From: Thermodesulfobacteriota bacterium
Lineage (GTDB): Bacteria > Desulfobacterota > Desulfomonilia > UBA1062
Reading direction: 5' to 3'
NCBI GenBank assembly: GCA_036834365.1
Contig: DAITOA010000013.1
Coordinates: forward strand, 141-64,140
DNA length: 64,000 bases
The notes under the pieces were generated by a model, which saw only the letters and a program-made list of their open reading frames with translations, was not told the DNA's origin and ran no database searches. This document shows, in pieces, positions 83 to 41,991 of this stretch (position 1 is the first letter of the stretch; the number at the start of each line of letters is the position of its first letter). The position numbers were made by a program, and so were the translations under genes.

Positions 83-167
83 TGGTGGAGGGGGGAGGAT
101 TCGAACCTCCGTAGGCTTCGCCGGCAGATTTACAGTCTGCTCCCTTTGGCCGCTCGGGAACCCCTCC
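83..167 (-). tRNA. tRNA-Tyr (anticodon GTA), 85 nt with long variable arm and encoded CCA
   Basis: Reverse complement reads GGAGGGG...CAGACUGUAAAUCUG...GGUUCGAAUCC...CCCCUCCACCA. The 7-bp acceptor stem pairs, the T-loop is GTTCGAATC and the anticodon loop is CUGUAAA. Confidence 0.85.
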
Positions 168-181
168 CGAAATATCTCTCA

Positions 182-257
182 TGGAGCTGGAGATGGGACT
201 CGAACCCGCAACCTGCTGATTACAAATCAGCTGCTCTACCGATTGAGCTACTCCAGC
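182..257 (-). tRNA. tRNA-Thr (anticodon TGT), 76 nt with encoded CCA
   Basis: Reverse complement reads GCUGGAGUAGCUCA...GCUGAUUUGUAAUCAGC...GGUUCGAGUCC...CUCCAGCUCCA. The acceptor stem GCUGGAG/CUCCAGC pairs and the anticodon loop is UUUGUAA. Confidence 0.85.
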
Positions 258-2195: not shown

Positions 2196-3323
2196 ATGAA
2201 GCGGGTGACCCTTCTCGGATCAACGGGCTCCATCGGGGAGTCGACCCTCGACGTCATCCGCATGCGGCCCGATGACTACCTGCTCGCCGGGCTGGCCACC
2301 GGGAGCAACACCCATCGACTGAGGGAGCAGGCGGAAGAATTCGGGGTCGAGTTCATAGGCATCGCCTCGCCCGACTCCACCGCACACCCCGGCGGGATAT
2401 GCATCTCCGGCGAGCAGGCCGCCGTCGAGGTCATCCGCAGGTCAGAACCGGACATCGTGGTGAACGGCATATCCGGCGCCGCCGGGTTCCTGCCCTCCCT
2501 GGAGGCCGTCAGACAGGGGGCCGCCCTGGCGCTGGCCAACAAGGAATCCCTGGTGATCGGCGGCCGTTTCCTCACGGAAGAAGCCGCCAGGAAAGGGGTC
2601 CCCATCCTCCCCGTGGACTCGGAGCACTCAGCCGTGTTCCAGTGCCTTGCCGGGGAAAGACCGGCGAACATCCGCCGCATCATCCTCACCGCATCCGGCG
2701 GCCCCTTCAGGGACCGCCCGAAGGAAACCTTCCCCTCCATCACCCCCGCCCAGGCCCTGAATCACCCGACCTGGTCCATGGGCAGGCGGATCACCGTGGA
2801 TTCGGCGACCCTCATGAACAAGGGGCTCGAGATGATCGAGGCATGCTGGCTCTTCGGTGTGGGCATGGACGCGATCACCGTGACCATCCACCCCCAGAGC
2901 ATCGTGCACTCCATGGTGGAGTTTATGGACAGGAGCATCAAGGCTCAGCTCAGCCTGCCCGACATGCGCATGGCCATCGGATATGCATTGTCCTGGCCGG
3001 AACGCATGGAGATCCCCCTGGCGCCGCTGCCTGTGGACTCCGTGCTGAGGCTGGAGTTCCTGCCGCCGGACGAAGACAAATTCCAGGCCCTGTCCGTGGC
3101 GCGCGACGCCATGGACAGGCCGGAGACGCTGCCCTGCGTCATGAATGCCGCAGACGAAGTGGCCGTCGGAGCCTTCCTGGCCGGCAGGATCAGATTCGAT
3201 GAGATCGTGGAGGTGGTGAAAAAGACCATGGACATGCTGGCAACATTCAGGGTAGAAACTCCCGAAGAGCTCATCGAACTCGACAAGAACGCAAGAAAGA
3301 CCGCAGGGGCATTGCTCTCATGA
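2196..3323 (+). CDS. dxr: 1-deoxy-D-xylulose-5-phosphate reductoisomerase
   Basis: N-terminal LGSTGSIG NADPH-binding motif, then the LANKESLV and DSEHSA motifs. 375 aa, typical length. Confidence 0.9.
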   Translation: MKRVTLLGSTGSIGESTLDVIRMRPDDYLLAGLATGSNTHRLREQAEEFGVEFIGIASPDSTAHPGGICISGEQAAVEVIRRSEPDIVVNGISGAAGFLPSLEAVRQGAALALANKESLVIGGRFLTEEAARKGVPILPVDSEHSAVFQCLAGERPANIRRIILTASGGPFRDRPKETFPSITPAQALNHPTWSMGRRITVDSATLMNKGLEMIEACWLFGVGMDAITVTIHPQSIVHSMVEFMDRSIKAQLSLPDMRMAIGYALSWPERMEIPLAPLPVDSVLRLEFLPPDEDKFQALSVARDAMDRPETLPCVMNAADEVAVGAFLAGRIRFDEIVEVVKKTMDMLATFRVETPEELIELDKNARKTAGALLS

Positions 3324-4393
3324 TAACGATTCTGGCTTTCATCATCGTACTCGGCGTGCTGATCTTCTTCCACGAGCTTGGCCACTTCATCGTGGCCAAG
3401 GCGAGCGGCGTGGGAGTCCTGAAGTTCTCCCTGGGCTTCGGCCCCGCCCTGCTGAGGAAGAGGATCGGCGAAACCCAGTACCAGGTGGCGGCATTCCCGC
3501 TGGGCGGCTACGTGAAGATGCTGGGCGAGGACCCTGACGACAAGGACCAGCTCACCCATATCGACCCCAAGCGGTCCTTTTCGCACAAGCCGCTTCCCAT
3601 CAAGGCGGCGATCGTCTTTGCCGGCCCCTTCTTCAACTTCATACTGGCGGTGGTCGTCTATACCGTCATCGCATGGGTGGGTGTTCCCTACCTCCTGCCC
3701 GTGGTCGGCGAGGTTCAGAAGGCCTCCCCGGCCGACAAGGCGGGGATGCTCGCCGGTGACATGATCCGGACCATCGGAAAGAAACCGGTTCAGGGCTGGG
3801 ACGATGTGGCGGCGGTGCTCCAGGAAACAGGGGCGGCCAAGGGGGTCGAGATCGAGGTCCTGCGCGAAGGCAAGGTCTTCGTCCTCCATGTGACACCGAC
3901 CATGAACAAGGCGAAGAACCTCTTCGGCGAGGAGATCAGCCGCCCCATGATCGGGATCGCGGTGGGAGACGTCACGGCGGTCAAGCGCTACGGCCCCATC
4001 AGCGGCATCGGATACGGGTTCTCCCAGTGCTACCACATCGTGGAGCTCACGGGTGTCGCCTTCGCCAAGATGATCAAAGGCTCCATCAGCGTCAAGGAGA
4101 GCCTGGGCGGCCCCATCCTCATCGCCCAGGTCTCGGGGCAGACCTTCAAGGCGGGACTGCTGCCCTTCGTCTCCCTGATCGCCTTCATCAGCATCAACCT
4201 GGCCATCATCAACCTGCTGCCCATCCCCGTCCTGGACGGCGGACACATCCTGCTCTTCCTCATCGAGGGCGTCACCGGCAAGCCGGTGGAGGGCAAGCCA
4301 CGCGAGATCGCCCAGCAGATCGGGCTCTTCATCCTCATCATGCTCATGCTCTTCGCCTTCTACAACGACATCGTGCGTATCTTCAAGGGATGA
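3320..4393 (+). CDS. rseP: RIP site-2 metalloprotease (RseP/YaeL family)
   Basis: HELGHF zinc motif near the N-terminus, a PDZ-like middle region and the C-terminal LLPIPVLDGGH(I) motif. 4-nt overlap with dxr. Confidence 0.85.
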   Translation: MITILAFIIVLGVLIFFHELGHFIVAKASGVGVLKFSLGFGPALLRKRIGETQYQVAAFPLGGYVKMLGEDPDDKDQLTHIDPKRSFSHKPLPIKAAIVFAGPFFNFILAVVVYTVIAWVGVPYLLPVVGEVQKASPADKAGMLAGDMIRTIGKKPVQGWDDVAAVLQETGAAKGVEIEVLREGKVFVLHVTPTMNKAKNLFGEEISRPMIGIAVGDVTAVKRYGPISGIGYGFSQCYHIVELTGVAFAKMIKGSISVKESLGGPILIAQVSGQTFKAGLLPFVSLIAFISINLAIINLLPIPVLDGGHILLFLIEGVTGKPVEGKPREIAQQIGLFILIMLMLFAFYNDIVRIFKG

Positions 4394-5082
4394 GCGCCGT
4401 GCAGGTCCTGGCACTGGATACCTCCACCGACTCCCTGTCCGTGGCCCTGGTCAGGGACAGACAAACGGCCTGCGAGATCGTCCTGAAGGTCAAGGCCGGC
4501 CATGCCGGCATCATCCTGCCGGTCATCGACGAGGTGCTTCGGAAGGCGGGAACCTCCCGCGACGCCATCGACCTCATCGCCGTGGGAACGGGCCCCGGCT
4601 CCTTCACGGGGCTCAGGATCGGCATCGCCACGGCCAAAGGGCTGGCCGTCTCTCTCGGCTGCCGGTTCGTCGGCGTCTCCACCCTCGATACCATGGCCCG
4701 GGCCGTTCTCCCGTCCCCCATGCCCGTCATGCCCGTCCTCGATGCCAAGAAGGGCGAGGTCTTCTGCGCCTCTTACGACCGGCACGGCTCACGCCTCATC
4801 GCCCCCATGAACCTGCGGCCCGAGGCGTTGGTGGCCCTGGTCAGGGAAGAGACCATGTTCGTGGGCAACGGGTGCGAGCTCTACCGGGATGCGTTCATCG
4901 GGGGGCTGGGGACCCGCTACCACGAGGCCGCCCCATACCTGTGGGCACCGAGGGCTTCGGTGCTGGCCGGCATCGCTCTTGATATGGCGCCCGGGGACGA
5001 ACCCGCGGATGTGCTCCCCGTCTATGTCCGGGAGTCGGATGCGGCTCTGCTGCTGGAGAGATCCGGCAGGGGGAATGCGTAG
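4390..5082 (+). CDS. tsaB: tRNA threonylcarbamoyladenosine biosynthesis protein TsaB (YeaZ)
   Basis: LALDTSTDSLSVAL start and the GTGPGSFTGLRIG motif of the inactive Kae1/YgjD paralog. The internal ATG at 4390 overlaps the rseP stop. The upstream part of ORF 4027-5082 lies inside rseP. Confidence 0.8.
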   Translation: MSAVQVLALDTSTDSLSVALVRDRQTACEIVLKVKAGHAGIILPVIDEVLRKAGTSRDAIDLIAVGTGPGSFTGLRIGIATAKGLAVSLGCRFVGVSTLDTMARAVLPSPMPVMPVLDAKKGEVFCASYDRHGSRLIAPMNLRPEALVALVREETMFVGNGCELYRDAFIGGLGTRYHEAAPYLWAPRASVLAGIALDMAPGDEPADVLPVYVRESDAALLLERSGRGNA

Positions 5083-5206: not shown

Positions 5207-6817
5207 ATGGGGAGCACTATGGGCAGATTCGATGCATTCACCTCCAAGGATTTTATAGAACAGGTCTCCATCCTCGGGTCTCTCGATCCTGCACGGGATC
5301 AAGATTCCATTCCCGATATCGTGGCGCTCCTGGGCAGGATACCGGAGCACGAGGCCATCATGCTGGTGATGAAGGACACCCTGAAGAAGCTGTTTTCGGG
5401 CAGCGAAGCCTCGACGGTGCGGTACCTCGCCGCCGGTGACCGGGAGATCCAGAAAATCTGCATCGAGGTGGCCGGCCGGGAAAGATTCGCTTCCGCAGCA
5501 GCGGCCCTGGAAGCCATCGAACGGCAGGCATCAGAAAAGAAGCACTACCGCATCGTCTTCGAGGTGATGAAGACGCTGGCCCAGATCCGACCGGAGGAAT
5601 CCATCGATCTGTTCAGAAAGCACGTGGATCACGAAGATTCCCTCATTGCATCTCTGTGCATCGAGACCCTCGGCGCACTGAACGACGCCCGGTCGTTCGA
5701 GCGCATGCACGGCATCATCATGGAAGCGGAGGATGACTCCCAAGGCGGCCTGTGCGACCTGCCGACAGCCAGCGCCATCAGGACCCTGGGCACATTCCAG
5801 GGCAGGGACGCCGTTGCCTTCTTCATCACCATGCTCCACCACAGGAACCCGGGGGTGCGCAGGGTGATCCACGAGGAGCTCTCCCGCAAGGGCATGGAGG
5901 CCGTGGACGCGCTCAGGGAAGTCTTCCGGGGAGACAGTTCCGACGCCAAGATATTCGCGGCAAACATCCTCGGTCTCATCGGGTCGAAGGAGGCGGCGGA
6001 CGTCCTCGTCCAGGCGCTGGATACGAACCGCAACGCCCATCCCAACATCCGGTATGCCATCTATGAGGCCCTCGGTTGCACCTCCGGCATGGCGGGCCTG
6101 GTCTGCCTGGCCGACGGGCTCGATGAGACGGACGGTATGGTCCTGCTGGCCGTGGTGACGGCCCTGGACATGCGGATGAACCAGTCGATCCTCGACCGGA
6201 TCTCCGAGACGATCAGGAAGGAAACCGGGCACGGCAGGAAGCTCGTGCAGGCGATCGTGGCATCCGGTGCCATGCATATCTTCGAGGGACTCCACCGTGG
6301 CGATGAGGCCATAGCGTCCATGCTGCTGGAAGAGATCAGGAATTCGGGCATCGGCGAGCACATCGCAGGGTACCGGACGATCCTGGAGGGGATGGACTCC
6401 GATCGCGCAAGGAACGACCTGCGGATTATCGATGGACTGCCCGCGAGAGAAGGTGAAAGGCGTATCCTGGCCGTGGACGACTCGAAGGCCATGCTCAACT
6501 TCTACAAGGGTGTGGCCGCTTCCCTGGGCATGGGCATCAGTACGGCCATGAACGGAAAGGAGGCCCTCGATGTCATTGCACTGGAGGAACGGTTCGACCT
6601 GATCATCACCGACATGAACATGCCGGTCATGGACGGGGTCGAGTTCACCGGTCATGTCAGGAGGGACCCGGCCCTTTCTGAGATCCCGATCATCATGATA
6701 ACCACCGAGTCCGAGCGTTCCCAGGAAGATCTGGCCCGCAAGGCCGGGGTGACCCACTTCATGCAGAAACCCTTCGACGCCGGGAAACTCATGGAGAGGA
6801 TCACCGGCTGCCTGTAG
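5207..6817 (+). CDS. HEAT/PBS-lyase-like repeat protein with a C-terminal response-regulator receiver (REC) domain
   Basis: Repeated helical units (DSLIASLCIETLGALND, PGVRRVIHEEL, AKIFAANILGLIGSKEAADVLVQAL, NIRYAIYEALG). The C-terminal ~120 aa is a REC domain (ILAVDDS...DLIITDMNMPVMDG...KPF). Start chosen at the internal ATG MGSTMGRF. Confidence 0.6.
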   Translation: MGSTMGRFDAFTSKDFIEQVSILGSLDPARDQDSIPDIVALLGRIPEHEAIMLVMKDTLKKLFSGSEASTVRYLAAGDREIQKICIEVAGRERFASAAAALEAIERQASEKKHYRIVFEVMKTLAQIRPEESIDLFRKHVDHEDSLIASLCIETLGALNDARSFERMHGIIMEAEDDSQGGLCDLPTASAIRTLGTFQGRDAVAFFITMLHHRNPGVRRVIHEELSRKGMEAVDALREVFRGDSSDAKIFAANILGLIGSKEAADVLVQALDTNRNAHPNIRYAIYEALGCTSGMAGLVCLADGLDETDGMVLLAVVTALDMRMNQSILDRISETIRKETGHGRKLVQAIVASGAMHIFEGLHRGDEAIASMLLEEIRNSGIGEHIAGYRTILEGMDSDRARNDLRIIDGLPAREGERRILAVDDSKAMLNFYKGVAASLGMGISTAMNGKEALDVIALEERFDLIITDMNMPVMDGVEFTGHVRRDPALSEIPIIMITTESERSQEDLARKAGVTHFMQKPFDAGKLMERITGCL

Positions 6818-9884: not shown

Positions 9885-9917
9885 AGAAGTGGCCGGGTCT
9901 GAGACCCTGCCACTTCT
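9885..9917. terminator. Near-perfect 33-nt palindrome (nested hairpin) between convergent genes; likely bidirectional intrinsic terminator
   Basis: The sequence agaagtggccgggtctgagaccctgccacttct is self-complementary apart from a central loop and one mismatch. It is followed by a T-containing tract and lies between the 3' ends of the Lpp-like gene and the sulfatase gene. Confidence 0.45.
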
Positions 9918-9946: not shown

Positions 9947-11689
9947 TCAGTCCAGATCGAACCGATGGTTGAATGCCAGGAACCTCAGCCAGCTCCCCTG
10001 AACCTTGAGCTTGCCCGAGGCCAGGGCCGCCAGCGGGGTCGTCACCTTGGCCGCCATCTTCCGGTAGGTCAGGGCGTCCACGACGAGCGTGGCTACGGGC
10101 TCGGGCGTCCCGGGCAGCGGGTCCCCCTGAACCACCTCGGCGATACCGTTGCGCACTGTCACGATGAAGCGTCTCTGCTCGTCCGGGAACACGTAATACA
10201 CCGTCTCGTGCACGTCCATGGCCCTTTCCGGCACGAGCCTCGCAGCCATGATGGTGAAGATGGCATCCAGCGGGATATTGGCCACGACGTTCTCGTCCAG
10301 CCTTGCCTGGGCGGGCTTCTCGATGCCGTGCCGGATCTCGTAGGCAGATTCCAGGAGATAGCCCCGGCCGTTGAGGTTGTACAGGGTGGATGCCAGCCCC
10401 TCGTAGCCCCCGGCGAGCTTTTCGTCCAGTTTCCCCTTGAGGCTCCCGGTGGCCAGTCCGCTGTCCCTGAGCTTGGTGAGCAGGTGGATGGCCCAGCGGA
10501 AATCGCCGGTCGTCAGTGCTGCATCGGAGAGCTTCATGACCTGGTCGGCCCCGCCCATGAGCCTGACCTCCCTGCCCGCCGCATCACTGACCTTCATGGG
10601 GTAGAGCTTCTCCGGCCTCCCATCGAACCAGCCCAGGTTGTTGGTGTACACGGCCCGTGCGGACCAGTCCACCTGGCCGTAGAACTCGGTGGTGTAGGGG
10701 AGCCCGGCGAGGTGCGGCGGCAGCGTGACGGTCTCCGCTATGGCGTCCATGTCATACCCCATGTTCGCCAGCCTGACGGTCTCGTCCCTGACCCACTGGA
10801 TGGCGTCCCGGTAGTTGGTCAGGACCTCTGCAATATTCTGCGCACCGTGGACAGGCACGGTATGGCAGGGTACCAGGTGCTCGGGGTTCAGGGCACGCAT
10901 CTCGTCCAGGCTTTTGATCCATCCGTCGATGGGCCTCGGGCTGGCGCCGCGGATGGTGTAGAGGTTCGGGAAGGTCCAGTAGAAATTGTCGGCAGCGATC
11001 ACGGTCCGGTCCTGCGGTACCCAGATGACGAGCTGGTCGTGGGTCTCACCGGGCGCCTCGATGAGCCGGATCTCCAGCCCGCCGAAGACCAGGGTCTTTG
11101 TCCCGGAGAAGGTATTTGTGGGCAGGCGGATGCCCGCGCCCTCCTGGGCGGCCCTGATGTCGGTGCGCCTGCCGATGCCGTTACAGGGCAGGTCATCCAG
11201 GGAGACGTGATCCCCGAACTGACGCCTGCCGCGGATGGTCTCGATGGGCAGGAAGAGCTGGTACTGCTTGTAGAAATGGTCCGTAAAGGTGTCCGTGGCC
11301 CAGATCTGCGGCCTGTCCTCCATCCAGAGGGACGCACCCCCGATGTGGTCTATGTGACTGTGGGTGTAGATGACGGCTTTGACCGGTCCTGCCGGGACGT
11401 TCGCGAGGAGGTCCCGCTTAGCCGCCTCTCCCCTCTTCGGGCTCATGAGGGGGTCCACGATGACGGAGCCCTCGGGGGTATGGATGAGGATCTCGTTGGC
11501 CAGGTCATACCCGACGGCGGCCCACACGTGCTCGGAGATCCGCTCGATGCGTGGCTCTCCGATGAGTTCGCACTGCCTCCTGAGGAGGTCAGGACCTGGC
11601 AGGGCGTCCCTGATCTGCCGGGCCCCGGGTGAACAGCCGATACTCAGTGCAAGGGAAAGGATCAGGACGGTCAGGGAATGCCTTTTCAT
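9947..11689 (-). CDS. Alkyl/aryl-sulfatase of the metallo-beta-lactamase fold (SdsA1/BDS1-like), lipoprotein signal
   Basis: Signal peptide plus Cys (SIGCSP). MBL motif HSHIDHIGG, a long dimerisation region and a C-terminal SCP2-like domain. 580 aa. Confidence 0.75.
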   Translation of the reverse strand: MKRHSLTVLILSLALSIGCSPGARQIRDALPGPDLLRRQCELIGEPRIERISEHVWAAVGYDLANEILIHTPEGSVIVDPLMSPKRGEAAKRDLLANVPAGPVKAVIYTHSHIDHIGGASLWMEDRPQIWATDTFTDHFYKQYQLFLPIETIRGRRQFGDHVSLDDLPCNGIGRRTDIRAAQEGAGIRLPTNTFSGTKTLVFGGLEIRLIEAPGETHDQLVIWVPQDRTVIAADNFYWTFPNLYTIRGASPRPIDGWIKSLDEMRALNPEHLVPCHTVPVHGAQNIAEVLTNYRDAIQWVRDETVRLANMGYDMDAIAETVTLPPHLAGLPYTTEFYGQVDWSARAVYTNNLGWFDGRPEKLYPMKVSDAAGREVRLMGGADQVMKLSDAALTTGDFRWAIHLLTKLRDSGLATGSLKGKLDEKLAGGYEGLASTLYNLNGRGYLLESAYEIRHGIEKPAQARLDENVVANIPLDAIFTIMAARLVPERAMDVHETVYYVFPDEQRRFIVTVRNGIAEVVQGDPLPGTPEPVATLVVDALTYRKMAAKVTTPLAALASGKLKVQGSWLRFLAFNHRFDLD

Positions 11690-11768: not shown

Positions 11769-11839
11769 CCTGCCAGTTCCGTGCATCCCGCATGCTTCTT
11801 TAAGAACTCCGCATATGCGGGATGCACGGAACTGGCAGG
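11769..11839. repeat. 71-nt palindromic element: 25-bp perfect inverted repeat with a 21-nt loop; core GTGCATCCCG / CGGGATGCAC
   Basis: Arm 1 cctgccagttccgtgcatcccgcat (11769-11793) is the exact reverse complement of arm 2 atgcgggatgcacggaactggcagg (11815-11839). It is intergenic, downstream of the CorC-family gene and ~80 nt upstream of the sulfatase start. A related element is at 37065-37119. Confidence 0.8.
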
Positions 11840-11895
11840 TTCAATGTTCCTCATCTCAAGCTCGCGTCAGGGTGTCCTGCACCCGGCGAGCCCCC

Positions 11896-13146
11896 TCACT
11901 CCTTCATGGTCACCCGTACCCTCACGATGCGGTTGCCGCGCATGCGCTCGATGCGGAACTGCATGCCGTCGAAGGTCACGGTGTCGCCCTCCTCGGGTAT
12001 GCGGTCGAGCCGGTCGTAGAGGAGGCCGGAGAGCGAGTCGTAGTCGTCGGGGAACTCGTGGTCGATGTAGCGCTCCAGGTCCAGCATGCTCAAGCTGCCC
12101 GTGACCACGAAGCTCGTGCCGCTCACCGGCACGATGGGGGGTCGCACGATGTCGTGCTCGTCGGCGATGTCGCCCGTGATCTCTTCGATGATGTCCTCCA
12201 GCGTGATGCCGCCCTTCACCGTGCCGTACTCGTCCACCACGAAGGCCATGTGGAGGCGCATGTTCTGGAAGTCCACCAGCTGGGTGAAGATGGACTTGGT
12301 CTCGGGCACGAAGTGCGCCTCGCGCAGGCAGTCCTTCACGTGGAAGGCATCCCTCCTGTCGAGGTGGGCCCACACGTCCCGGATATGCAGGTACCCCACG
12401 ATGTTGTCCCGGTCGTCCTTGAAGACGGGATATCTGCTGTAGCTCTTGGTGGTGATCACCTGGACGATCTCGTCGAAGGTGCTGTCCATGGAGAGGAGGA
12501 CCATGTCTCCCAGGGGGAGCATGACCTTGCGAACGGGCACCTCGTCGAGGTCCATGATGGCGGCCATCATCTTGGCCTTGGACTCGGGGAGAAAGCCCTC
12601 CTTGTGCCCCATGGCGATGACCGAACCCACGTCCTCCTCGGAGAACTCGGGGTGCTTCCCGGGCTTCAGGCCGAAGAGCCTGAGCATCCCCTTGGCCATG
12701 AGGGTGAAGACCCTGACGAACGGGTTCAGCACCAGGATGATAATCCTCAGCGGCTGGGAGAAGAGCAGGGTGACCATGTCCGGCCGGTAGGCCGCAATGG
12801 TCTTGGGCGTGATCTCCCCGAAGATGAGCAGCAGCACGGTCATGGCAATGGTGGCATACAGGATGCCGCGCTCTCCGAAAAAGGAGATGAACAGCACCGT
12901 GGCAATGGCCGAGGCGAGCACGTTGACGAAGTTGTTGCCCAGGAGGATGGCGCTGATGAGCCGCTCGGGCTCCTTCAGAATATCCTCCACGAGTTTCGCC
13001 CGGGCGTTCCCCTTCTCCGCCAGGGTACGCAGGCGGAACCGGTTGGCCCTCATGTATGCGGTCTCGCTGCTTGAGAAGAAGGCGGATATCATGATGAGAA
13101 TGACGAGCACTGCGGTGTAGATGATCTCGTCTGCGCCGGTGATCAT
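11896..13146 (-). CDS. CNNM/CorC/HlyC-family transporter-associated protein (DUF21 membrane domain + CBS pair + CorC_HlyC domain)
   Basis: N-terminal four-helix DUF21 with the conserved SSSETA motif. Tandem CBS region and C-terminal transporter-associated domain. Confidence 0.75.
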   Translation of the reverse strand: MITGADEIIYTAVLVILIMISAFFSSSETAYMRANRFRLRTLAEKGNARAKLVEDILKEPERLISAILLGNNFVNVLASAIATVLFISFFGERGILYATIAMTVLLLIFGEITPKTIAAYRPDMVTLLFSQPLRIIILVLNPFVRVFTLMAKGMLRLFGLKPGKHPEFSEEDVGSVIAMGHKEGFLPESKAKMMAAIMDLDEVPVRKVMLPLGDMVLLSMDSTFDEIVQVITTKSYSRYPVFKDDRDNIVGYLHIRDVWAHLDRRDAFHVKDCLREAHFVPETKSIFTQLVDFQNMRLHMAFVVDEYGTVKGGITLEDIIEEITGDIADEHDIVRPPIVPVSGTSFVVTGSLSMLDLERYIDHEFPDDYDSLSGLLYDRLDRIPEEGDTVTFDGMQFRIERMRGNRIVRVRVTMKE

Positions 13147-24300: not shown

Positions 24301-24411
24301 ACCTATCCTCCTTCGGGCATATCACCCTCCCCACTTCCGTCCTCATGCCGATTTTCGAAAAACCCGGCCTGCCGTAGAGGATAATCAAGAGATCCTATAC
24401 GGAGGTGGCTC

Positions 24412-25752
24412 ATGAAGTACAGAGAGGAGTATCAGAGGAAACTGGTCTCCGCCGAGACCGCTGCTGCGGTGGTGAAGTCCGGCGACTGGGTGGACTACGG
24501 TCACTTCGCCTGCGCGCCCACTTTCCTGGATGCGGCGCTGGCACAAAGGGTCCACGAACTCCATGACGTGAAAATCCGGGCTCTGACCTTCCCGGGCATG
24601 GCAGCCGTGGCCACGGCCGACCCCCTCCAGGAACACTTCGTCTACAACAACTGGCACTTCGGGGGCGGCGACCGCATGCTCCACGACAAGGGTCTGTGCA
24701 GCTACATTCCCCTGCTCTACCATGAGGGACCGACGCTCTACGGCCTCATCGACTCCGACGTGTTCATGGTGAAGACAGCCCCCATGGACGGGGGCGGTTA
24801 CTTCAACTTCGGACCCTCCAACTCCATCTCCAAGCACATCGCGGACCGTGCGAAGACCGTCATCGTGGAGGTGAACGCCAACGTCCCCTACTGCTACGGC
24901 GGACTCAACGAGGCCGTCCACATCTCGGAGGTTGACTACATCGTGGAGTCGGACAACAAGCCCCTGGTGCAGACCAAGGAACCCCTGGTCAGCGACGTGG
25001 ACAGGGATATCGCGCGCCTCATCGTGCAGGAGATCCCGGATGGAGCATGCCTTCAGCTGGGCATCGGGGCCATGCCCAACGCGGTGGGCAAGCTCATCGC
25101 GGAAAGCGACCTGAAGGACCTGGGCGTGCACACCGAGATGCTCGTGGACTCGTACGTGAACATGTACGAGGCGGGCAGGATCACAAACATGCGCAAGCAG
25201 CGGGACCGGGGCAGGATGGTGTACACCTTCGCACTCGGCACCCAGAGACTCTACGACTTCATCGACCACAACGCACGCTGCGCCTCCTACTCGGTGGACT
25301 ACACGAACAACCCCGAGCACATCAGGACCAACGACAACATGATCGCCATCAACAACGCCGTGGAGGTGGACCTGTACGGACAGGTCTCCTCCGAGTCGTC
25401 GGGTACCCGCCAGATCTCCGGAACGGGGGGTCAGTTCGACTACATCTTCGGCGCCTTCCATTCCAGGGGCGGCAAGTCCTTCATCTGCCTGTCCTCCACC
25501 AAGACCGACCGGAACGGTACGGTGAGGTCTCGCATCCGGCCCATGCTCGATCCCGGCTCCATCGTGACCGTGCCCAGGACCATCGTGCACTACGTGGTTA
25601 CCGAGTACGGCAAGGCCATGCTCAAGGGCAAGAGCACCTGGGAAAGGGCCGAGGCCCTCATCGGCATCTCCCACCCTGCGTTCAGGGACGAGCTCGTCGA
25701 AGAGGCGGAGCGCATGGGCATCTGGAGGAGGTCGCAGCGCCTGGCGGCTTAG
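24412..25752 (+). CDS. Acetyl-CoA hydrolase/transferase family protein (4-hydroxybutyrate / butyryl-CoA:acetate CoA-transferase-like)
   Basis: GGAGG RBS. Full-length AcetylCoA_hydro N and C domains, 446 aa. Confidence 0.8.
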   Translation: MKYREEYQRKLVSAETAAAVVKSGDWVDYGHFACAPTFLDAALAQRVHELHDVKIRALTFPGMAAVATADPLQEHFVYNNWHFGGGDRMLHDKGLCSYIPLLYHEGPTLYGLIDSDVFMVKTAPMDGGGYFNFGPSNSISKHIADRAKTVIVEVNANVPYCYGGLNEAVHISEVDYIVESDNKPLVQTKEPLVSDVDRDIARLIVQEIPDGACLQLGIGAMPNAVGKLIAESDLKDLGVHTEMLVDSYVNMYEAGRITNMRKQRDRGRMVYTFALGTQRLYDFIDHNARCASYSVDYTNNPEHIRTNDNMIAINNAVEVDLYGQVSSESSGTRQISGTGGQFDYIFGAFHSRGGKSFICLSSTKTDRNGTVRSRIRPMLDPGSIVTVPRTIVHYVVTEYGKAMLKGKSTWERAEALIGISHPAFRDELVEEAERMGIWRRSQRLAA

Positions 25753-25790
25753 AGGCGATCCGGGAGCATGCCGGGCGAGGTATCGTAGAC

Positions 25791-25827
25791 ATTCTGCATG
25801 GCCCCGTACCATCCGGCCATGCAGAAT
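25791..25827. terminator. Perfect 13-bp stem hairpin (attctgcatggcc / ggccatgcagaat, 11-nt loop) 40 nt after the CoA-transferase stop
   Basis: The inverted repeat is read directly. No clear U tract follows. Confidence 0.4.
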
Positions 25828-26006
25828 CCTCTCCGGACGAGCCGTCAGACTGATCCGAAGGTAAACAGTCTTCATACGCAACGCACGGTTTTCAAACGAA
25901 CTTCTCCCCACGGTTACGTTACCTTAAAAATCCACATTTTCACCACACTGTCACCACATTCCTCAGGTAATGATCATCCCAGATCAAGCGTAAAGGAGTA
26001 TTCTCG

Positions 26007-27638: not shown

Positions 27639-27681
27639 ACGCCTGTGACGCCTGCCCATGCGGTCAGACACCAAGATATGC

Positions 27682-27711
27682 GAAGGGACACCTGCGTTCA
27701 GGTGTCCCTTC
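27682..27711. terminator. Bidirectional terminator hairpin (12-13 bp perfect GC-rich stem, 5-nt loop) between convergent srkA and the RRM-protein gene
   Basis: The hairpin gaagggacacctg-cgttc-aggtgtcccttc is read directly. Confidence 0.55.
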
Positions 27712-27738
27712 GGTGAACTCGTCTTCTCAGGGCCGGGA

Positions 27739-28101
27739 CTAGTAGCGCCGTCCGCCTCCGCCACCACCGCCGGGACGCCGTCCACCGCCGCCACCACCGG
27801 GCCTCCGGTCTCCGCCGCCACCGCCGCCGAACCTCCTGCCGCCTCCGCCGCGGTTATCCTCACGGGGACGGGCTTCATTGACATTGATGGCCCTGCCCTT
27901 CAGATCCTTGCCGTTCAGACCGGAAATGGCGGCCTGACCGGCCTCTTTGGACGGCATCTCAACAAAGCCGAATCCGCGGGAATCCCCAGTGAATTTATCG
28001 CGGATCACATTTGCCGATGTCACTTCTCCGAATGCCTGGAACGCCTGCTGCAGATCCTCGTTGGTAACATCGCGTGACAGATTTCCTACAAAGATATTCA
28101 T
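27739..28101 (-). CDS. RRM-type RNA-binding protein with Gly/Arg-rich (RGG) C-terminal tail
   Basis: RNP2 (IFVGNL) and RNP1 (RGFGFVEM) motifs, then a GGGGRRPGGGG repeat tail. Confidence 0.85.
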   Translation of the reverse strand: MNIFVGNLSRDVTNEDLQQAFQAFGEVTSANVIRDKFTGDSRGFGFVEMPSKEAGQAAISGLNGKDLKGRAINVNEARPREDNRGGGGRRFGGGGGGDRRPGGGGGGRRPGGGGGGGRRY

Positions 28102-33473: not shown

Positions 33474-33506
33474 GGGCAACAAGGGGAACGTCTTTTTCCT
33501 GACCTG

Positions 33507-33567
33507 CCGATTCTGTCACGTTCACCTGAGATAAGAGGAAAGCACCAAGTGAACGTGACAGAACCGG
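33507..33567. terminator. 19-bp stem (1 mismatch) / 23-nt loop hairpin between convergent AI-2E transporter and GAF-kinase genes
   Basis: The arm ccgattctgtcacgttcac pairs with gtgaacgtgacagaaccgg. Read directly. Confidence 0.45.
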
Positions 33568-33611
33568 CAGGCTATACAACCATACCCTGTCCGGGGGAGA
33601 AAATCGAGGCT

Positions 33612-34835
33612 CTACCGCAAGCCGGGGATCGAGAAGACGAAGCGGCTCCCCCTCTTCCCGTCGCTCTCCACGCGGATGGTGCCCCGGTGAGCTTCTACCG
33701 CCATCCTGCAGAACGTCAGGCCGAGGCCCGTCGAGTATCTCCTCCCGTCCCTCTTCCTGGTGATCTGGAAGAATTTGTCGAAAACGGCCTTGTGGAATTC
33801 CGGGGAAATGCCGGGACCCTGGTCCTGCACATGAAACTCCACCCCGCCGCCTGAGCGCTCAAAACCGACCTCCACCCGGCCCCCGTGGGGTGAATGCTGA
33901 ACTGCATTGACCAGCAGGTTCTGCAGGATGCGCAGCAGGATGCCGCGGTCCCCGGTGAAAGGCTCGCCACCGCTTTCAGGGATGCACTCGGTGAGCTCGA
34001 CTCCCCTGGCTCCGGCCATGCCGTGCAGGCGGACGACCGACTCGTGGATGAGCGCTGCGGGGTCGACCTTCTCGTAAACGAGGCTGAGGCAGCCTTCCTC
34101 GAGCCTGGTGATGTCGAGCAGGTCGGATATCATGCGGAACAGCGTGTCGCAGCCGGACTGGGCCGTCTGGACGAACTCGAGGTTGTCGCCCGTGTTCGTG
34201 TATGAGAGGATGTCGAGGTTCGCCACGATTTCCGAGAGAGGCCCCTTCAGGTCGTGGATGATCATGTTGAAGAGTTCGTTGCGGATCCTTTCCAGGTTCC
34301 TGAGCTCCACGTTCTTCCTTTTGATGTCGGCCCTGCTGCGACGCAGGCGCTCCTCCATCTGCTGGTTCTCCACGGCGCTGATGACCTGGCCGGCAAGGGT
34401 CAGGAGGAACTCCTGTTCCTGGGCATTGAACGAGTCGTCATCCTTCCGGTCGGTGACGCTCAGTACGCCGATGACCCTGCTGCGGCTGATGATGGGGGCC
34501 AGGAGGAAGGCGTTCTTCTTGTAGTGGTCGTATCTCCGACGGAACCCGGTGTCTTCCGAACCCGGCCCCACGTAGAGTATCCTCCTGTTCCTGACCACCC
34601 ATGCCGAGGGGGTGTCCTCTTCGATGGACTGTCGGACACCCACCAGCGATGGGTTCGTCGACACGACGACCTCCAGGGTCCTCCTCCCGCGCAGCAGCAT
34701 GATGGAGCCGCACTCGGTATTCATGCAGGCAAGGACCTCACCGAGAATACGCTTTAGTTTGCCCTCGAAGGTAAGGGATCTCCGGTGCGATATCTCCATG
34801 ATCTTCAGGATGGTATGAGGAGTCTGCGGTGCCAT
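33612..34835 (-). CDS. GAF-domain sensor histidine kinase (HisKA + HATPase_c)
   Basis: GGAGG RBS. N-terminal GAF, H-box HDLKGPLSEI and G-boxes (QDQGPGI, GLGLTF). Confidence 0.85.
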   Translation of the reverse strand: MAPQTPHTILKIMEISHRRSLTFEGKLKRILGEVLACMNTECGSIMLLRGRRTLEVVVSTNPSLVGVRQSIEEDTPSAWVVRNRRILYVGPGSEDTGFRRRYDHYKKNAFLLAPIISRSRVIGVLSVTDRKDDDSFNAQEQEFLLTLAGQVISAVENQQMEERLRRSRADIKRKNVELRNLERIRNELFNMIIHDLKGPLSEIVANLDILSYTNTGDNLEFVQTAQSGCDTLFRMISDLLDITRLEEGCLSLVYEKVDPAALIHESVVRLHGMAGARGVELTECIPESGGEPFTGDRGILLRILQNLLVNAVQHSPHGGRVEVGFERSGGGVEFHVQDQGPGISPEFHKAVFDKFFQITRKRDGRRYSTGLGLTFCRMAVEAHRGTIRVESDGKRGSRFVFSIPGLR

Positions 34836-34846
34836 GTCGCCCTCCG

Positions 34847-36001
34847 TTAGAGACACTGCTTGATGAGCTCCCGGGCTTCCCTGTTCCCCGGCTCGATCTT
34901 CTCCACCTTCTGGAGCACAAGGTCGGCTCGCGCGGTCTGGTTGAGGGATATGTAGACCTTGGCCACCTTCAGGAGCAGCTGAACATTCCCCGACTCCTTC
35001 CGTTCGATCTCCATCAGGTAAGGCATGGCCTTCTTCGATTCGCCTGAACGCACATAGGCATCTACGAGGTTGGACATGATATCGAACCGGTTGGGTATCT
35101 GCTGGAGGATGACGGAGTAGAGCTGTACGGCAAAGCCGTATTCACCCTTGGCCATACAGATGGATGCAATGTCTTCCCGCAGGGACAGTGGATCGTCGGC
35201 CAGGTCGATGATCTTGTTGAACACCTTTACCGCCTTGTTCGCCATACCTTTTTCCAGGAGGATCTTGCCGAAGTTCATTCCCCTTTCCAGGTGGCGGGGA
35301 CTGATCTGCATGGCCCGCTCATAACACTTCGACGCATTGTCCATGTCCCCTTTCCCGAGGTAGAGATCCCCCAGGTAATGGAAGGCGAACACATCCATAT
35401 CGTTCATGCCGGCGGCCTTGAGAAACCACTTCTCCGCCTGATCCATATCGCCCTTCTTGAAGTGGAGGTACCCGAGTTCCCGCACGGGTCTCGACGAGGA
35501 CGGGCTGGCATCCATGGCCAGGATGGCCTCCTGTATGGCCTTGTCGAAATCTCCGTTCTCCTCGAGATCACGCGCACGCTTCAGGTGATACTGCATGGGC
35601 GGAGGATTGTTCGCCCGGTTGATGACCATGAGCACCCTCTCTTCCAGGGCCTTCACGGTAATGGGTTTCAGGATGTAGGCATCGATATCCGATTCGGCGG
35701 CCTCGGCCACGATCTCCCGGTTCGCCTCTGCCGTCACCATCACCACCGGAAGGTCACGAAGCTTCCGGTCGTCCCTGATACGGCCCAGGAGCTCGACCCC
35801 GGTCATGACCGGCATATTCCAGTCCACGATGGCCATATCGATGCGATCCTTTCCCTCGAGTATCTTCCACGCCTCCTGCCCGTCATGGGCATAGAAGAAC
35901 TGGTCGCCGATGTTGAGAACCTTGAACATGCTCCTGATGGACTTGCACATGTTCTCCATGTCGTCCACGATGAGGATGTTCATGTGTTGCATGTCTACCA
36001 T
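34847..36001 (-). CDS. Response regulator receiver fused to TPR-repeat domain
   Basis: REC motifs (ILIVDD, AIVDWNMPVMTG, KP). The C-terminal ~250 aa forms several TPR-like repeats. 10-nt overlap with the kinase. Confidence 0.8.
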   Translation of the reverse strand: MVDMQHMNILIVDDMENMCKSIRSMFKVLNIGDQFFYAHDGQEAWKILEGKDRIDMAIVDWNMPVMTGVELLGRIRDDRKLRDLPVVMVTAEANREIVAEAAESDIDAYILKPITVKALEERVLMVINRANNPPPMQYHLKRARDLEENGDFDKAIQEAILAMDASPSSSRPVRELGYLHFKKGDMDQAEKWFLKAAGMNDMDVFAFHYLGDLYLGKGDMDNASKCYERAMQISPRHLERGMNFGKILLEKGMANKAVKVFNKIIDLADDPLSLREDIASICMAKGEYGFAVQLYSVILQQIPNRFDIMSNLVDAYVRSGESKKAMPYLMEIERKESGNVQLLLKVAKVYISLNQTARADLVLQKVEKIEPGNREARELIKQCL

Positions 36002-36176
36002 ACGTACGACCTCTTACCGTCACGATGGAATGTGGGTTGACCTTCTATCTCTACGTCAGTTTTCCGGAAAACATTAATCCCGGACAGGAACCGAAAGCAG
36101 GCATGATATTAATGGCTTCTACTTGGTTTTGTGCATCACCGGCGACCCCCGGGAGAACACCCTGATCCGCTCATGT

Positions 36177-36614
36177 TCAGACGTTTTCATGGATCGGATT
36201 GATACCTCCCATGGCCTCGGTGAATCTGTTCATAAGTCTTTCGGTAATGATGAAGGGGATGTCCGGACACCTCGTGAACCGGAGCCGGTAACCTTTCATG
36301 ATCCTTCCATGAAACCGCTCGGCACGTATCTCCGACCAGGGGATCAAGAGAGGCGGGTGTGCAATCCTTAAGGGGAAGGCCACCGAGATATGGAGACCTC
36401 CCTGTCCCGGTCCGAAGGCAAGGCAGTTGTTGTAGCCCATCATCCACCTCAGTGAGGCGCTCTGGAACCGGAATGTGCGGCCCTGATAGGGTGTTGACTC
36501 GCGGTAATGGGCCGCCAGTGCGGACCACCCCCCGATACGCGAGATGGCATACATGACCGCGAACCAGAGGATGACGAAGAGAAACAGCAGGTAGTACTCA
36601 GGAATCCCGTTCAT
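36177..36614 (-). CDS. Hypothetical N-terminally anchored membrane protein
   Basis: GGAGG RBS upstream of the internal ATG (MNGIPEYYLLFLFVILWFAVMYAI). No recognisable domain. Confidence 0.4.
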   Translation of the reverse strand: MNGIPEYYLLFLFVILWFAVMYAISRIGGWSALAAHYRESTPYQGRTFRFQSASLRWMMGYNNCLAFGPGQGGLHISVAFPLRIAHPPLLIPWSEIRAERFHGRIMKGYRLRFTRCPDIPFIITERLMNRFTEAMGGINPIHENV

Positions 36615-36754
36615 GATCCGTCTCTCCTCCCCGAAGACATCCATACGCGATGGAGGCATGTCCATGCAAGCGCCTCCTCCGGACCGGTCAGGTTCCTTAT
36701 TTCCTCGCCGACCGAAAGGATGTACAAAGGTCTCCGGGTATGCATACCGGAATG

Positions 36755-36970
36755 AAGATCCTCATGGCAGTCCTTGTCCTGGCCGTGCTCGTGTCCACAG
36801 GGTATCTCGTCCTCTCGGCATTGGAGGCGAGCGGGGCGGGGCACGGCCTTGTCAGGTACTTCGCACGGCTGGGCATCGGAGTGGACCTGCGGGCGGTTAT
36901 CCTGGCCGTGGGCCTCATCCCCCTCGCCTGGCTCGTGGGGTTCATCATCAGGACATGGTCGGTGAAGTGA
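36755..36970 (+). CDS. Possible small two-TM membrane protein (71 aa)
   Basis: Two hydrophobic helices. Weak RBS and no homology signal. Confidence 0.25.
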   Translation, partial: KILMAVLVLAVLVSTGYLVLSALEASGAGHGLVRYFARLGIGVDLRAVILAVGLIPLAWLVGFIIRTWSVK

Positions 36971-37064
36971 AGTTGTCAATTTTCACGCTTATGTCCTGGT
37001 TGGTAGTGAGACATCATCCTGGGAAGAGTTGAGGATAAGGTTTCTGCAGCGCCTGCGGCGCTGG

Positions 37065-37119
37065 CCTCCCCATTGTGTGCATCCCGGGTGAAAAACACGG
37101 GATGCACACAATGGGGAGG
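37065..37119. repeat. 55-nt palindromic element: 22-bp perfect inverted repeat with 11-nt loop; same GTGCATCCCG / CGGGATGCAC core as the element at 11769
   Basis: cctccccattgtgtgcatcccg (37065-37086) is the exact reverse complement of cgggatgcacacaatggggagg (37098-37119). It is preceded by a small 7-bp hairpin (cagcgcc-tgc-ggcgctg) and lies between convergent gene ends. Confidence 0.8.
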
Positions 37120-39154: not shown

Positions 39155-40084
39155 TCAGACCTGCTCAGGGAAGAGCTCCGTGCTCAGGTAGCGCTCACCC
39201 GTGTCGCACACGATGAAAACCACGAGCTTCCCGGTGTTCTCGGGCCTCTTCGCCACCTCCACGGCGGCGTGGGCGATGGCCCCCGAAGAGATGCCGCACA
39301 GGATCCCTTCCTTGCGGATGAGCCTGCCCGCCATGGTGACGGCCTGGTCGTTGGTGACCGGGAAGACCTCGTCCACGAGGTCGCGCCGGAACACCTCGGG
39401 TACGAACCCGGCCCCGATGCCCTGGATCTTGTGGGACCCCGGTTTGCCTCCCGAGAGCACCGGCGAGTCCGCCGGCTCCACGGCCACCACCTTCACCGAC
39501 GGCCTGCGCTGTTTGATCACCGCGCTCACGCCCGTGATGGTCCCGCCCGTCCCCACCCCGGCGACGAAGACGTCAACCTGGCCGTCCGTGTCCCTCCAGA
39601 TCTCCTCGGCGGTGGTACGTTCGTGGACCAGCGGATTCGCCGGGTTGGCGAACTGCATGGGCATGAAGGAATTCCTGTTCTCGTCAACGATCTCCCGGGC
39701 CTTCTCGATGGCGCCGCGCATCCCCAGGGCTGCGGGGGTAAGCACCACCCGGGCGCCGAGACCCTTCAGAAGCTTCCTCCGTTCTATGCTCATGCTCTCG
39801 GGCATGGTAAGGACGACCTTGTATCCCTTCACCGCACAGACGAACGCGAGCCCGATCCCCGTGTTGCCGCTCGTGGGCTCCACGATGAGGGTGTCCTTGT
39901 CGATAAGCCCCGCCTTCTCCGCCGCCTCGATCATGCTCATGCCGATGCGGTCCTTCACCGAGGAGCACGGGTTGTAGAACTCCAGCTTCCCTGCGACCCT
40001 GGCCACACATCCCTCGGTCACCCTGTTGAGCATCACGAGCGGGGTGTTGCCCACCAGCGCAATCATGTCGGCTGCAATGTTCAT
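39155..40084 (-). CDS. cysK: Cysteine synthase A (O-acetylserine sulfhydrylase)
   Basis: PLP lysine motif SVKDRIG and glycine-rich GTGGT loop. 309 aa. Confidence 0.9.
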
Positions 40085-40168
40085 AAGACCGGTCCTCCCT
40101 CCATTGTACTGTCAACCCTTGCGGGGGAGATCCCCGCCTGGTTCGAGGCATCGCGGATCCGGCGTCCC

Positions 40169-40804
40169 TTACGTACCGGCGGGTGCGGTCGTCTCGGTAT
40201 TGCAGAAGTGCTTGTTCTTGTAGAATTCCAGAAGCCGCTCCACCTCGTCCTTGCACTCGCCGCAGACCGTCCCCACCTTTGTCTTCTCCTGGAGCTCGTA
40301 GTAGGTCCGGGCGCCCTCCAGCACGGCGTCCTCGATCTCGTGGTCGGTCACGTTCATGCAGTTGCACACGACCCGCGCCTCTTCCCTGACCACCTTGTCA
40401 TGGAGGCCGTTGCGTTCGTAGTAGTCGTTGATGGCCGCTCGCAGGGCCTTGTCACCGAGCACGCTGCAGTGGATCTTGTGCTCGGGCAGGCCGCCCAACT
40501 CCTTGTTGATGTCCTTGGGCGAGAGCCTGAACGCCTCTTCGATCTTCATGCCCTTGACCATCTCGGACATGATCGACGTGCTCGCGATGGCGCTGGCGCA
40601 CCCGAAGGTCTTCCACTTGCAGTCGGTGATGACGCCCTTGTCCCTGTCCACCTTGATGGCCACGATCATCTGGTCGCCGCACTTGATGTTGCCGGTCAAC
40701 CCGCGGCCGTCGGCCTGGAATGCCTCCTCGTCGGTGAGGATATTCTTGGGGTGCATGAAGTGTTCGAGCACCTTGTCCGTGTATACCCAGTTCAGCTTTT
40801 CCAT
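40169..40804 (-). CDS. nifU: NifU-type Fe-S scaffold: IscU-like N-domain + BFD-like [2Fe-2S] domain
   Basis: AAGGAG RBS. IscU-like cysteines (GCGD, GCASAIAS, HCSVLG) then the CNCMNVTDHEIE...VCGEC BFD-like module. Start overlaps the nifS stop. Confidence 0.8.
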   Translation of the reverse strand: MEKLNWVYTDKVLEHFMHPKNILTDEEAFQADGRGLTGNIKCGDQMIVAIKVDRDKGVITDCKWKTFGCASAIASTSIMSEMVKGMKIEEAFRLSPKDINKELGGLPEHKIHCSVLGDKALRAAINDYYERNGLHDKVVREEARVVCNCMNVTDHEIEDAVLEGARTYYELQEKTKVGTVCGECKDEVERLLEFYKNKHFCNTETTAPAGT

Positions 40805-41991
40805 CACTGTCTCCTTGCGTATGCGCTCGACATCTCCCTGATGCGGGCAATGACGTCGGGCAGCACCGTGAGCATCACATCCACGTCGTCGAAGGTGTTC
40901 TCGCGGCCCATGCTTATGCGGATGGAGCCGTGGGCGCACTCGGCGGGAAGGCCGGTGGCCAGGATCACGTGCGACGGGTCGAGTGATCCCGATGCACAGG
41001 CCGAGCCAGTGGACACCGCGATGCCCGCCAGGTCGAGGTAGAGAAGGATGGCTTCGCCCTCGGCCCCATCGAAGGACACATTCAGGGTCCCGGGCAGGGT
41101 GTCTACGGGGTGACCAATGAAATGTATGTCCGGGATCTTCTCGGCGATCCCTTTACGCAGGGCCTCCTTCATCCTCTTCAGGCGCTTCTCCTCCTCGTCC
41201 ATCTCATGTCCGCGCATCTCTATGGCCTTACCCAGGGCGACGATGCCGATGGTGTTCTCGGTCCCGGCCCGCCTGCCCCTCTCCTGGTGCCCACCCCTGA
41301 TGAGGGGGCAGAAGGGCGAGCCCTTTCTCACGTACACGGCCCCGACCCCCTTGGGACCGTATATCTTGTGCCCGGACAGGGTGAGAAAGTCCACGCCGAG
41401 GTCGTTCACATTCACCGGGACCTTTCCCACGGCCTGGACCGCATCGGTGTGGAGCAGCGTGCCCTTTTCGTGGCAGATCCGGGAGATCGCCCCGATGTCC
41501 TGGATGGTGCCGATCTCGTTGTTGGCCATCATCACGGAGACCAGTCCGGTCATGGGGGTGATGGACTGCTCCAGCTGACCCAGATCCACCTTGCCGTCAC
41601 TGTCCACGTCGAGGTAGGTGACCTTGACGCCCTTCTCCATGAGGCACCGGGATGTCTCCAGGATGCAGGGGTGTTCGATCTTCGTGGTAATGAGCTCCTT
41701 GCCCGTGCACTCGTCGAAATCGCAGCCCCGACACTGGCAGGTGAGGATGGAGAGCACGGTGTTGTTGCCCTCTGACCCGCTCCCCACGAACATGATCTCG
41801 TCGGGCTTGGCACCGATGAAGCCCGCGACCATCTGCCGAGCTTCCTCCACATAGGTCCGCGCGTGCCTTCCGAAGCCGTGGAGGCTCGAGGGGTTCCCAA
41901 AGACGTCCAGGACTTCGGTGATCGCCTTCTTCACCTCGGGATGGAGCGGGGTGGTGGCGTTGTTGTCGAAGTAGATCATGCGCTTCTCCAT
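40804..41991 (-). CDS. nifS: Cysteine desulfurase (NifS/IscS class I)
   Basis: Aminotransferase class V fold with the PLP-lysine region SGHKIYGPKG and catalytic loop SSGSACAS. Confidence 0.9.
   Translation of the reverse strand: MEKRMIYFDNNATTPLHPEVKKAITEVLDVFGNPSSLHGFGRHARTYVEEARQMVAGFIGAKPDEIMFVGSGSEGNNTVLSILTCQCRGCDFDECTGKELITTKIEHPCILETSRCLMEKGVKVTYLDVDSDGKVDLGQLEQSITPMTGLVSVMMANNEIGTIQDIGAISRICHEKGTLLHTDAVQAVGKVPVNVNDLGVDFLTLSGHKIYGPKGVGAVYVRKGSPFCPLIRGGHQERGRRAGTENTIGIVALGKAIEMRGHEMDEEEKRLKRMKEALRKGIAEKIPDIHFIGHPVDTLPGTLNVSFDGAEGEAILLYLDLAGIAVSTGSACASGSLDPSHVILATGLPAECAHGSIRISMGRENTFDDVDVMLTVLPDVIARIREMSSAYARRQ

Follow-up and report, generated by a model that had tools for sequence, protein, structure and literature searches.

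Long extragenic palindromes near gene 3' ends in an uncultured Desulfomonilia-like bacterium: a small family of candidate transcript-boundary hairpins

We analysed a 64,000-nucleotide stretch of DNA (hereafter, the window; GC content 61%) from an uncultured Desulfobacterota/Desulfomonilia-like bacterium of the sulfate-reducer type. Our analysis showed that the three longest hairpins in these 64 kb, each of which begins CCTSCCNNTTNNGT, are related to one another (Table 1). We interpret them as REP/REPIN-like hairpins of 3' untranslated regions (UTRs) that would set transcript boundaries and make up a small, lineage-restricted family, and our confidence in this reading is evenly balanced. A role at mRNA 3' ends, or the insulation of a downstream sulfatase gene, seems to be the most plausible function. 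Because strict membership in the REP, REPIN and MITE classes fails on the defining features that were tested, we file the elements under extragenic palindromic repeats at large; they belong to this broad known kind and are a fairly ordinary feature.

Table 1. Palindromic elements and accompanying hairpins, in coordinates of the window.
Feature	Position	Strand	Description
Copy 1	11769..11839	.	Arms 25/25 perfect, 21-nt loop; spacer between the CorC and alkyl-sulfatase genes
Copy 2	37065..37119	.	22 perfect pairs, 11-nt loop; equivalently 25-nt arms at 96%, 5-nt loop
Copy 3, distant member	33503..33571	.	Arms 26-28 nt; 92% complementary over 26 nt; CCTGCCGATTCTGTCACGTTCAC...GTGAACGTGACAGAACCGGCAGG
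Small hairpin	37047..37063	.	CAGCGCC-tgc-GGCGCTG; 1 nt from copy 2
GC-rich two-step hairpin	11860..11891	-	GCTCGC/GGGTG...CACCC/GCGAGC; 4 nt past the CorC stop, between CorC and copy 1; read from sequence

The palindrome of copy 1 is real, and its length is far beyond chance. Its arms (11769-11793 and 11815-11839, 25 nt each) are 100% complementary and stand 21 nt apart, in the order CCTGCCAGTTCCGTGCATCCCGCAT - 21-nt loop - ATGCGGGATGCACGGAACTGGCAGG, just as the initial annotation of this DNA had described. When we generated 20 first-order Markov resamplings, the longest perfect inverted repeat with a loop of <45 nt was 10-14 nt, versus 25 nt in the window. Folding of the RNA, which had been proposed as a check, gave -56.1 kcal/mol on the minus strand and -57.7 kcal/mol on the plus strand (z about -9.5 to -10), and 0 of 200 shuffles were equally stable. 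Folded as single-stranded DNA, the element reaches -36.3 kcal/mol (z = -11.9). The same locus is found, identical, in anaerobic-digester metagenomes and in the metagenome-assembled genome GCA_035593585.1, and the intergenic region is 100% identical in 5/5 contigs.

Genes around copy 1 are read from the minus strand, in the order UvrD-type helicase, CNNM/CorC-type transporter (11896-13146), a 206-nt spacer that contains copy 1, and MBL-fold alkyl sulfatase (9947-11689). The palindrome lies 56 nt past the CorC stop codon and 79 nt ahead of the sulfatase start; these gene coordinates agree with its earlier placement downstream of the CorC gene and upstream of the sulfatase. The two-step hairpin between CorC and copy 1 (Table 1) may be the original 3' hairpin of CorC.

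The initial annotation had proposed a family of two copies. Its second palindrome, copy 2, is real and pairs as given in Table 1, but the family has three members in the window, and copy 3 had been overlooked. Copies 1 and 2 do share an identical core, GTGCATCCCG, as had been claimed. They also begin CCT(G/C)CC and end GG(C/G)AGG, and the TTCA that was said to trail them is indeed present in the sequence, after copies 1 and 2 only and not after copy 3. The identity of their arms had been put at 16/22; the correct figure is 17/22, and all five differences (5/5) are compensated in the opposite arm. Copy 3 starts with CCTGCC, ends with GGCAGG, and shares with the family only the outer 14 nt (CCTGCCGATTCTGT).

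The outer-stem pattern of the family can be written as CCTSCCNNTTNNGT...ACNNAANNGGSAGG: the outer 14 nt are conserved, in contrast to a variable inner stem and loop. Copies 1, 2 and 3 measure 71, 55 and 69 nt, with stems of 22-28 bp and an arm spacing of 5 to 23 nt, and their RNA folding energies range from -40 to -58 kcal/mol (z from -8 to -10). They are quite divergent from one another. A covariance model (R1) was built from copy 1, copy 2 and two orthologues from the relatives L085 and L083; copy 3, whose MAFFT alignment with the others failed, was left out and scored afterwards. It received 30 bits; an unrelated perfect palindrome of 28 bp received 18.6 bits, and the terminator-like hairpin at 42061 received 9 bits. 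Copy 3 is therefore a distant member, with only the outer stem in common with the rest of the family.

The motif CCTSCCNNTT was found 15 times in the window, versus 5.6 expected. Extra degenerate copies were sought with the covariance model (filters off) and by arm matching with up to six mismatches, and none was detected in the window or, apart from the ortholog, in about 94 kb of DNA from relatives. No long hairpin occurs in the 9 kb to the right of the window, and the copy number is thus three in about 73 kb (the 64-kb window and these 9 kb). We also scanned collections that do not contain this organism for CCTGCCNNTTNNGT N{15,45} ACNNAANNGGCAGG and obtained 23 genome-contig and 46 metagenome-contig matches, which are scattered over unrelated taxa and some of which are palindromic. 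When plasmids were searched by blastn with the element plus its flanks, nothing matched. Four viral-contig matches to GTGCATCCCG N{3,30} CGGGATGCAC were rejected as unrelated hairpins in which the CCTSCC outer stem is missing, and an occurrence of CCTGCCACTT at 9906 was set aside as part of an unrelated small hairpin.

All three copies are extragenic and stand 29-94 nt beyond a stop codon; convergent genes flank two of them and tandem genes flank the third. This bears out the earlier suggestion of an intergenic repeat family, which here is also close to gene 3' ends. The intergenic share of the window is 8.7%, and it is notable that all three copies fall inside it, each in a spacer that contains a gene 3' end. 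None of the three is located in the divergent promoter spacers of the window, and the chance of such avoidance is about 0.36. With n = 3, a preference for any class of spacer is not statistically significant, and the placement statistics are weak. Copy 2 is flanked by a convergent pair, the TraB/GumN gene (minus strand, stop at 37179) and a 76-aa membrane ORF (plus strand, stop at 36970); copy 3 is likewise flanked by convergent genes, for an AI-2E transporter (plus strand) and a GAF histidine kinase (minus strand). Hairpins are also present at other convergent junctions, namely at 9886-9917, 27681-27712 and 42061-42101 of the window and at 4772-4860 of L088.

The last of these is unrelated to the family: its arms pair perfectly at 28/28 around a 33-nt loop, and it is situated between convergent RRM_1 and APH genes and followed by a partial third copy of the arm (AATACGTATACTGTCCCC). 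At the same RRM_1/APH junction, the window carries no more than a 14-bp hairpin (27681-27712). Within this clade, convergent junctions seem to be a recurrent place for long perfect palindromes. The RRM_1-type gene of the window encodes a glycine-rich RNA-binding protein (27739-28101, minus strand) and is masked by a same-length plus-strand ORF (27658-28077) that a naive longest-ORF call favours.

The small hairpin beside copy 2 is near-invariant as CAGCGCC-GYA-GGCGCTG in the window, in L085 (about 2771-2787) and in L083 (about 6780-6795), and the spacer around it has diverged. This hairpin might be the true terminator of the 76-aa ORF, or else a site for a protein. This ORF (36740-36970, plus strand) encodes a conserved hydrophobic membrane protein (MHTGMKILMAVLVLAVL...GFIIRTWSVK), follows the AI-2E transporter gene in relatives, and is masked in the window by a longer, spurious 139-aa ORF (36613-37032, GC3 0.49). 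Between the AI-2E gene and the 76-aa ORF, the window carries response-regulator/TPR and GAF histidine kinase genes together with a 162-aa ORF (33612-36665). The segment with the two signalling genes is present in the window and in L085 and is missing in L083, L088 and L093, where the flanking genes adjoin. It looks like a cassette-like indel, with copy 3 at one of its edges in the window.

Comparison with relatives reveals one site at which the element is inherited vertically and covaries, two sites at which it was gained, others at which it was lost, and inversion of a loop. Absence at orthologous sites had been suggested as a check on the family; copies 1 and 3 are indeed absent there, and the TraB site is variably occupied. 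The spacer between CorC and the sulfatase is 53-74 nt long in L029, L030 and L031 (CorC 83-86% identical) and lacks the palindrome, versus 206 nt in the window. Because copy 1 is absent from these orthologous spacers, it is a gain specific to the lineage of the window. Its spacer contains about 135 nt besides the 71-nt element, so its arrival was not a clean insertion. In the relatives, CorC and the sulfatase are probably co-transcribed, and copy 1 separates the pair. Copy 3 is absent in L085, which has just 27 nt between the orthologous histidine kinase and AI-2E genes; it too is a lineage-specific gain, and the alignment of this spacer between the window and L085 is too divergent for insertion boundaries.

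The TraB site gave a different history. In L085, L086 and L087 (TraB 67% identical) an element occupies the same place, with the form CCTCTTCGTTTTGTACATCTCGG-loop-CCGGGATGCACAAAACGAAGAGG, and in L083 (TraB 66% identical) the element is degenerate (GTGCATCCCG...CGGGAGGGCACGGAACGGAAAGG). It has thus been kept despite diverged flanks and a TraB identity of 66-67%. Between the window and L085, four positions of the stem are altered on both sides. When the four sequences were aligned, double changes were found in 7/22 pairs and 89.8% of the cells were paired, a value that 0 of 500 shuffles reached; sliding the register lowered the pairing to 33-52%. The site is empty in L093 (18-nt spacer), L094 and L095 (15 nt), L088 (63 nt) and L084, and these empty lineages are nested among the occupied ones in a neighbour-joining tree of TraB. 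The simplest history is that the copy at this site is ancestral and was lost at least three times; having been deleted so often, the element is dispensable.

The 11-nt loop of copy 2 and the loop of L085 share a 7-nt identity in inverted orientation and none in the same orientation (p about 0.003-0.009). The inverted loop reads GGTGAAAAACA at 37087-37097 of the window, on the TraB-antisense strand, and GTGAAAAGATC at 2736-2746 of L085, on the TraB-sense strand. This suggests a flip-flop, that is, recombination between the arms at the DNA level. Loop inversion is expected from arm recombination or template switching because the arms are palindromic, and the same arm-to-arm process would homogenise the arms. 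Such exchange could also yield compensatory changes, and covariation is therefore not a clean proof of selection for RNA structure. One hint of an RNA-level role comes from copy 3. Both of its mismatches become G.U pairs in RNA of the minus strand and A.C in RNA of the opposite strand. Its folding energy is -50.5 kcal/mol for the minus strand (sense for the histidine kinase) versus -40.4 kcal/mol for the plus strand.

It has been shown that E. coli REPs such as REP325 are dual terminator and stabiliser elements in 3' UTRs (bioRxiv 10.64898/2026.03.23.713779), and that most REPs are found downstream of ORFs, in the spacers of unidirectional and convergent genes (PMC3733652). The present elements may act in a similar way. 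Because they are located within a few tens of nucleotides past stop codons, we infer that they are transcribed with the 3' UTRs of their neighbours, and copy 1 with the intercistronic RNA of CorC and the sulfatase. The folded RNA would be an extremely stable hairpin that marks a transcript boundary. It could make RNA polymerase pause or terminate in part, block 3'-to-5' exonucleases so that the upstream mRNA is stabilised, or, with a perfect stem of at least 22 bp, present a duplex of the size used by RNase III and so uncouple the sulfatase from CorC. At the DNA level, the arms would be held complementary by compensatory change and inter-arm exchange, and new copies would arise rarely at new gene ends, with slow spread of the family.

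The main rival explanation, which is compatible with the boundary-hairpin reading, is that the palindromes are selfish, non-autonomous mobile elements of the REPIN or MITE type, copied by an enzyme encoded elsewhere (a RAYT or another transposase), and that any effect on transcripts is incidental. We regard this as possible but doubtful. The architecture is REPIN-like, with inverted conserved ends, a variable pairing middle and compensatory changes (PMC3116915), and conserved inverted ends around a variable spacer that forms a compensatory hairpin were found here. Copies 1 and 3 are present in the window and absent at the orthologous sites of relatives; copy 1 pairs perfectly at 25/25, as a young copy would; and in the GGAAC segment the arm of copy 1 is nearer to the right arm of the L083 TraB-site element (CGGGAGGGCACGGAACGGAAAGG) than to copy 2 of the window. 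Long persistence at orthologous sites fits as well, since REPINs are also reported to persist in this manner (PMC8049555). Against this rival, we scanned the window proteins against Pfam and inspected the annotated 9 kb beyond, and found no RAYT (Y1 HUH transposase), other transposase or integrase. No target-site duplication accompanies the copies, whose flanks are cgg/ttc, tgg/ttc and tga/cta, and the extra DNA in the copy-1 spacer argues against a clean insertion. Moreover, three copies per about 73 kb, with none but the ortholog in about 94 kb of relatives' DNA, are few for such an element, and they are rather divergent mutually.

All three copies (3/3) are extragenic and downstream of ORFs between tandem or convergent genes, as REPs are, but at 71, 55 and 69 nt they are not imperfect palindromes of 20-40 bp. 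When folded alone, the arms gave 0 to -1.5 kcal/mol, no better than shuffles, so that the ends are not each a REP, as those of a REPIN are. The ends CCTSCC/GGSAGG are fully paired, and GTAG/CTAC or CGTC/GACG are absent at or beside the ends of the three copies. The REP/BIME-like label of the initial annotation therefore stands for the REP/REPIN-like architecture and the extragenic, 3'-proximal position, and falls for strict REPs or BIMEs: the elements have no tag and no internal palindrome, are 55-71 nt long, and have no RAYT in the window. The alternative label, MITE-like, is not upheld. Inverted repeats are trivially there, but neither a target-site duplication nor a parent insertion sequence was found in the window.

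A bolder version of the mobile-element idea, which we think rather unlikely, is that these palindromes represent an undescribed, untagged family of REPIN-like replicators in the Desulfobacterota/Desulfomonilia, mobilised by an enzyme not yet linked to such repeats. In this version, exchange between the arms would keep the arms perfect and flip the loops, and the family would have stayed in place at some gene ends from a time before the species split and would still be seeding copies.

The three hairpins might also be independent, ordinary intrinsic terminators, possibly bidirectional and long by chance, whose likeness reflects coincidence or a convergent preference. We consider this improbable. 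A canonical intrinsic terminator has a GC-rich stem of about 5-14 bp and a loop of 3-8 nt, directly followed by a U-tract. A location shortly after stop codons, with convergent neighbours in two cases, would suit such terminators, and the hairpins at other convergent junctions in the window and in relatives agree with this. However, stems of 22-28 bp and loops that reach 23 nt lie well beyond the usual range, and the terminator scan was silent on the full hairpins; the initial annotation had likewise judged copy 1 far stronger than an ordinary terminator. That consensus scan found 7 terminator-like sites in the region versus 7.4 expected, which is no excess. No U-tract follows the stems on either strand in any of the three copies; copy 1 has the tails CCGAUCUUUCG and UUCAAUGUUCC, copy 2 has CCAGCGCC and UUCAUAUCUAU, and copy 3 has UCAGGAAAAAG and CUAUACAACC. 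Canonical intrinsic termination is unlikely because of this. The shared 10-nt core and the 14-nt outer-stem pattern in the three longest hairpins are not due to chance, and the covariance model separates copy 3 (30 bits) from unrelated hairpins (18.6 and 9 bits).

Finally, an operator of a dimeric DNA-binding regulator, as suggested initially, or a recombination site (attC, dif) is very improbable: dyad symmetry and the position of copy 1 upstream of the sulfatase start would suit it, but the arms covary so that no recognition sequence is fixed, the conserved halves are 5 to 23 nt apart, two of the three copies have convergent neighbours and no promoter to control, the site is deleted outright in several lineages, the attC cores RYYYAAC/GTTRRRY are absent from the ends, and no integrase or recombinase was found in the window. 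An integron attC in particular was rejected; the ends misfit the R''/R' cores, there is no integrase, and the flanking genes are syntenic housekeeping genes.

A search against Rfam returned no family at the gathering threshold at the elements, where only generic miRNA-precursor hairpin models appear below threshold. In the whole window, only two tRNAs pass; tRNA-Tyr(GTA) and tRNA-Thr(TGT) stand side by side at its left edge (83-257, minus strand). Three long ORFs of the window (2945-4785, 24385-25911 and 39269-41775) match nothing in Pfam and have a third-position GC of 0.57-0.66, versus 0.8-0.9 in their neighbours. They may represent miscalled frames or DNA of foreign origin, and one of them contains a 13-bp perfect hairpin (25791-25827).

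If the boundary-hairpin reading is true, these elements would be another case of extragenic hairpin repeats that tune transcript boundaries and leave coding sequence untouched, in a poorly studied lineage of uncultured anaerobes, and one hairpin would split a CorC-sulfatase pair that is tightly linked in relatives. For annotation, it is useful that such hairpins escape terminator predictors that require a U-tract. The family further offers a modest case study of how palindromes evolve, with covariation, loop inversion, and gain and loss at orthologous sites. It opens no long-standing question.

Among known systems, intrinsic or bidirectional terminators of convergent genes are alike in being stable, GC-containing hairpins just past stop codons, symmetric and usable from both strands; the stems here are two to three times as long as usual, with long loops, and no U- or A-tract stands in the right places. 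The Correia elements of Neisseria are palindromic MITEs of 100-155 bp with terminal inverted repeats of about 25 bp, a TA target duplication, and internal IHF and promoter features; they occur in hundreds of copies, are transcribed, and are cut by RNase III. The present elements resemble them in having inverted repeats of about 25 bp that form a double-stranded RNA stem of RNase III length, in their intergenic position and, presumably, in being co-transcribed with neighbours. None of the TA duplication, the size of 100-155 bp, the IHF and promoter features or the hundreds of copies is seen here. The GTAG- and CGTC-tagged REPs and BIMEs of Proteobacteria, studied by Di Nocera et al. (2013; PMC3733652), are likewise located downstream of ORFs, between unidirectional or convergent genes. 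However, REPs are imperfect palindromes of 20-40 bp with an unpaired GTAG or CGTC, in tens to hundreds of copies, whereas the elements here are 55-71 nt long, untagged and near-perfect. Unlike the REPINs of Bertels and Rainey (2011; PMC3116915), they have no internal REP palindrome in each arm, no GTAG-type tag and no RAYT in view, and number three in about 73 kb. They are alike in being extragenic hairpins of about 55-110 nt with inverted conserved ends and a less conserved, pairing middle, in their presence or absence between relatives, and in their long persistence at a site. With E. coli REP325 (bioRxiv 10.64898/2026.03.23.713779), they would share the expected action as a transcribed 3'-UTR hairpin.
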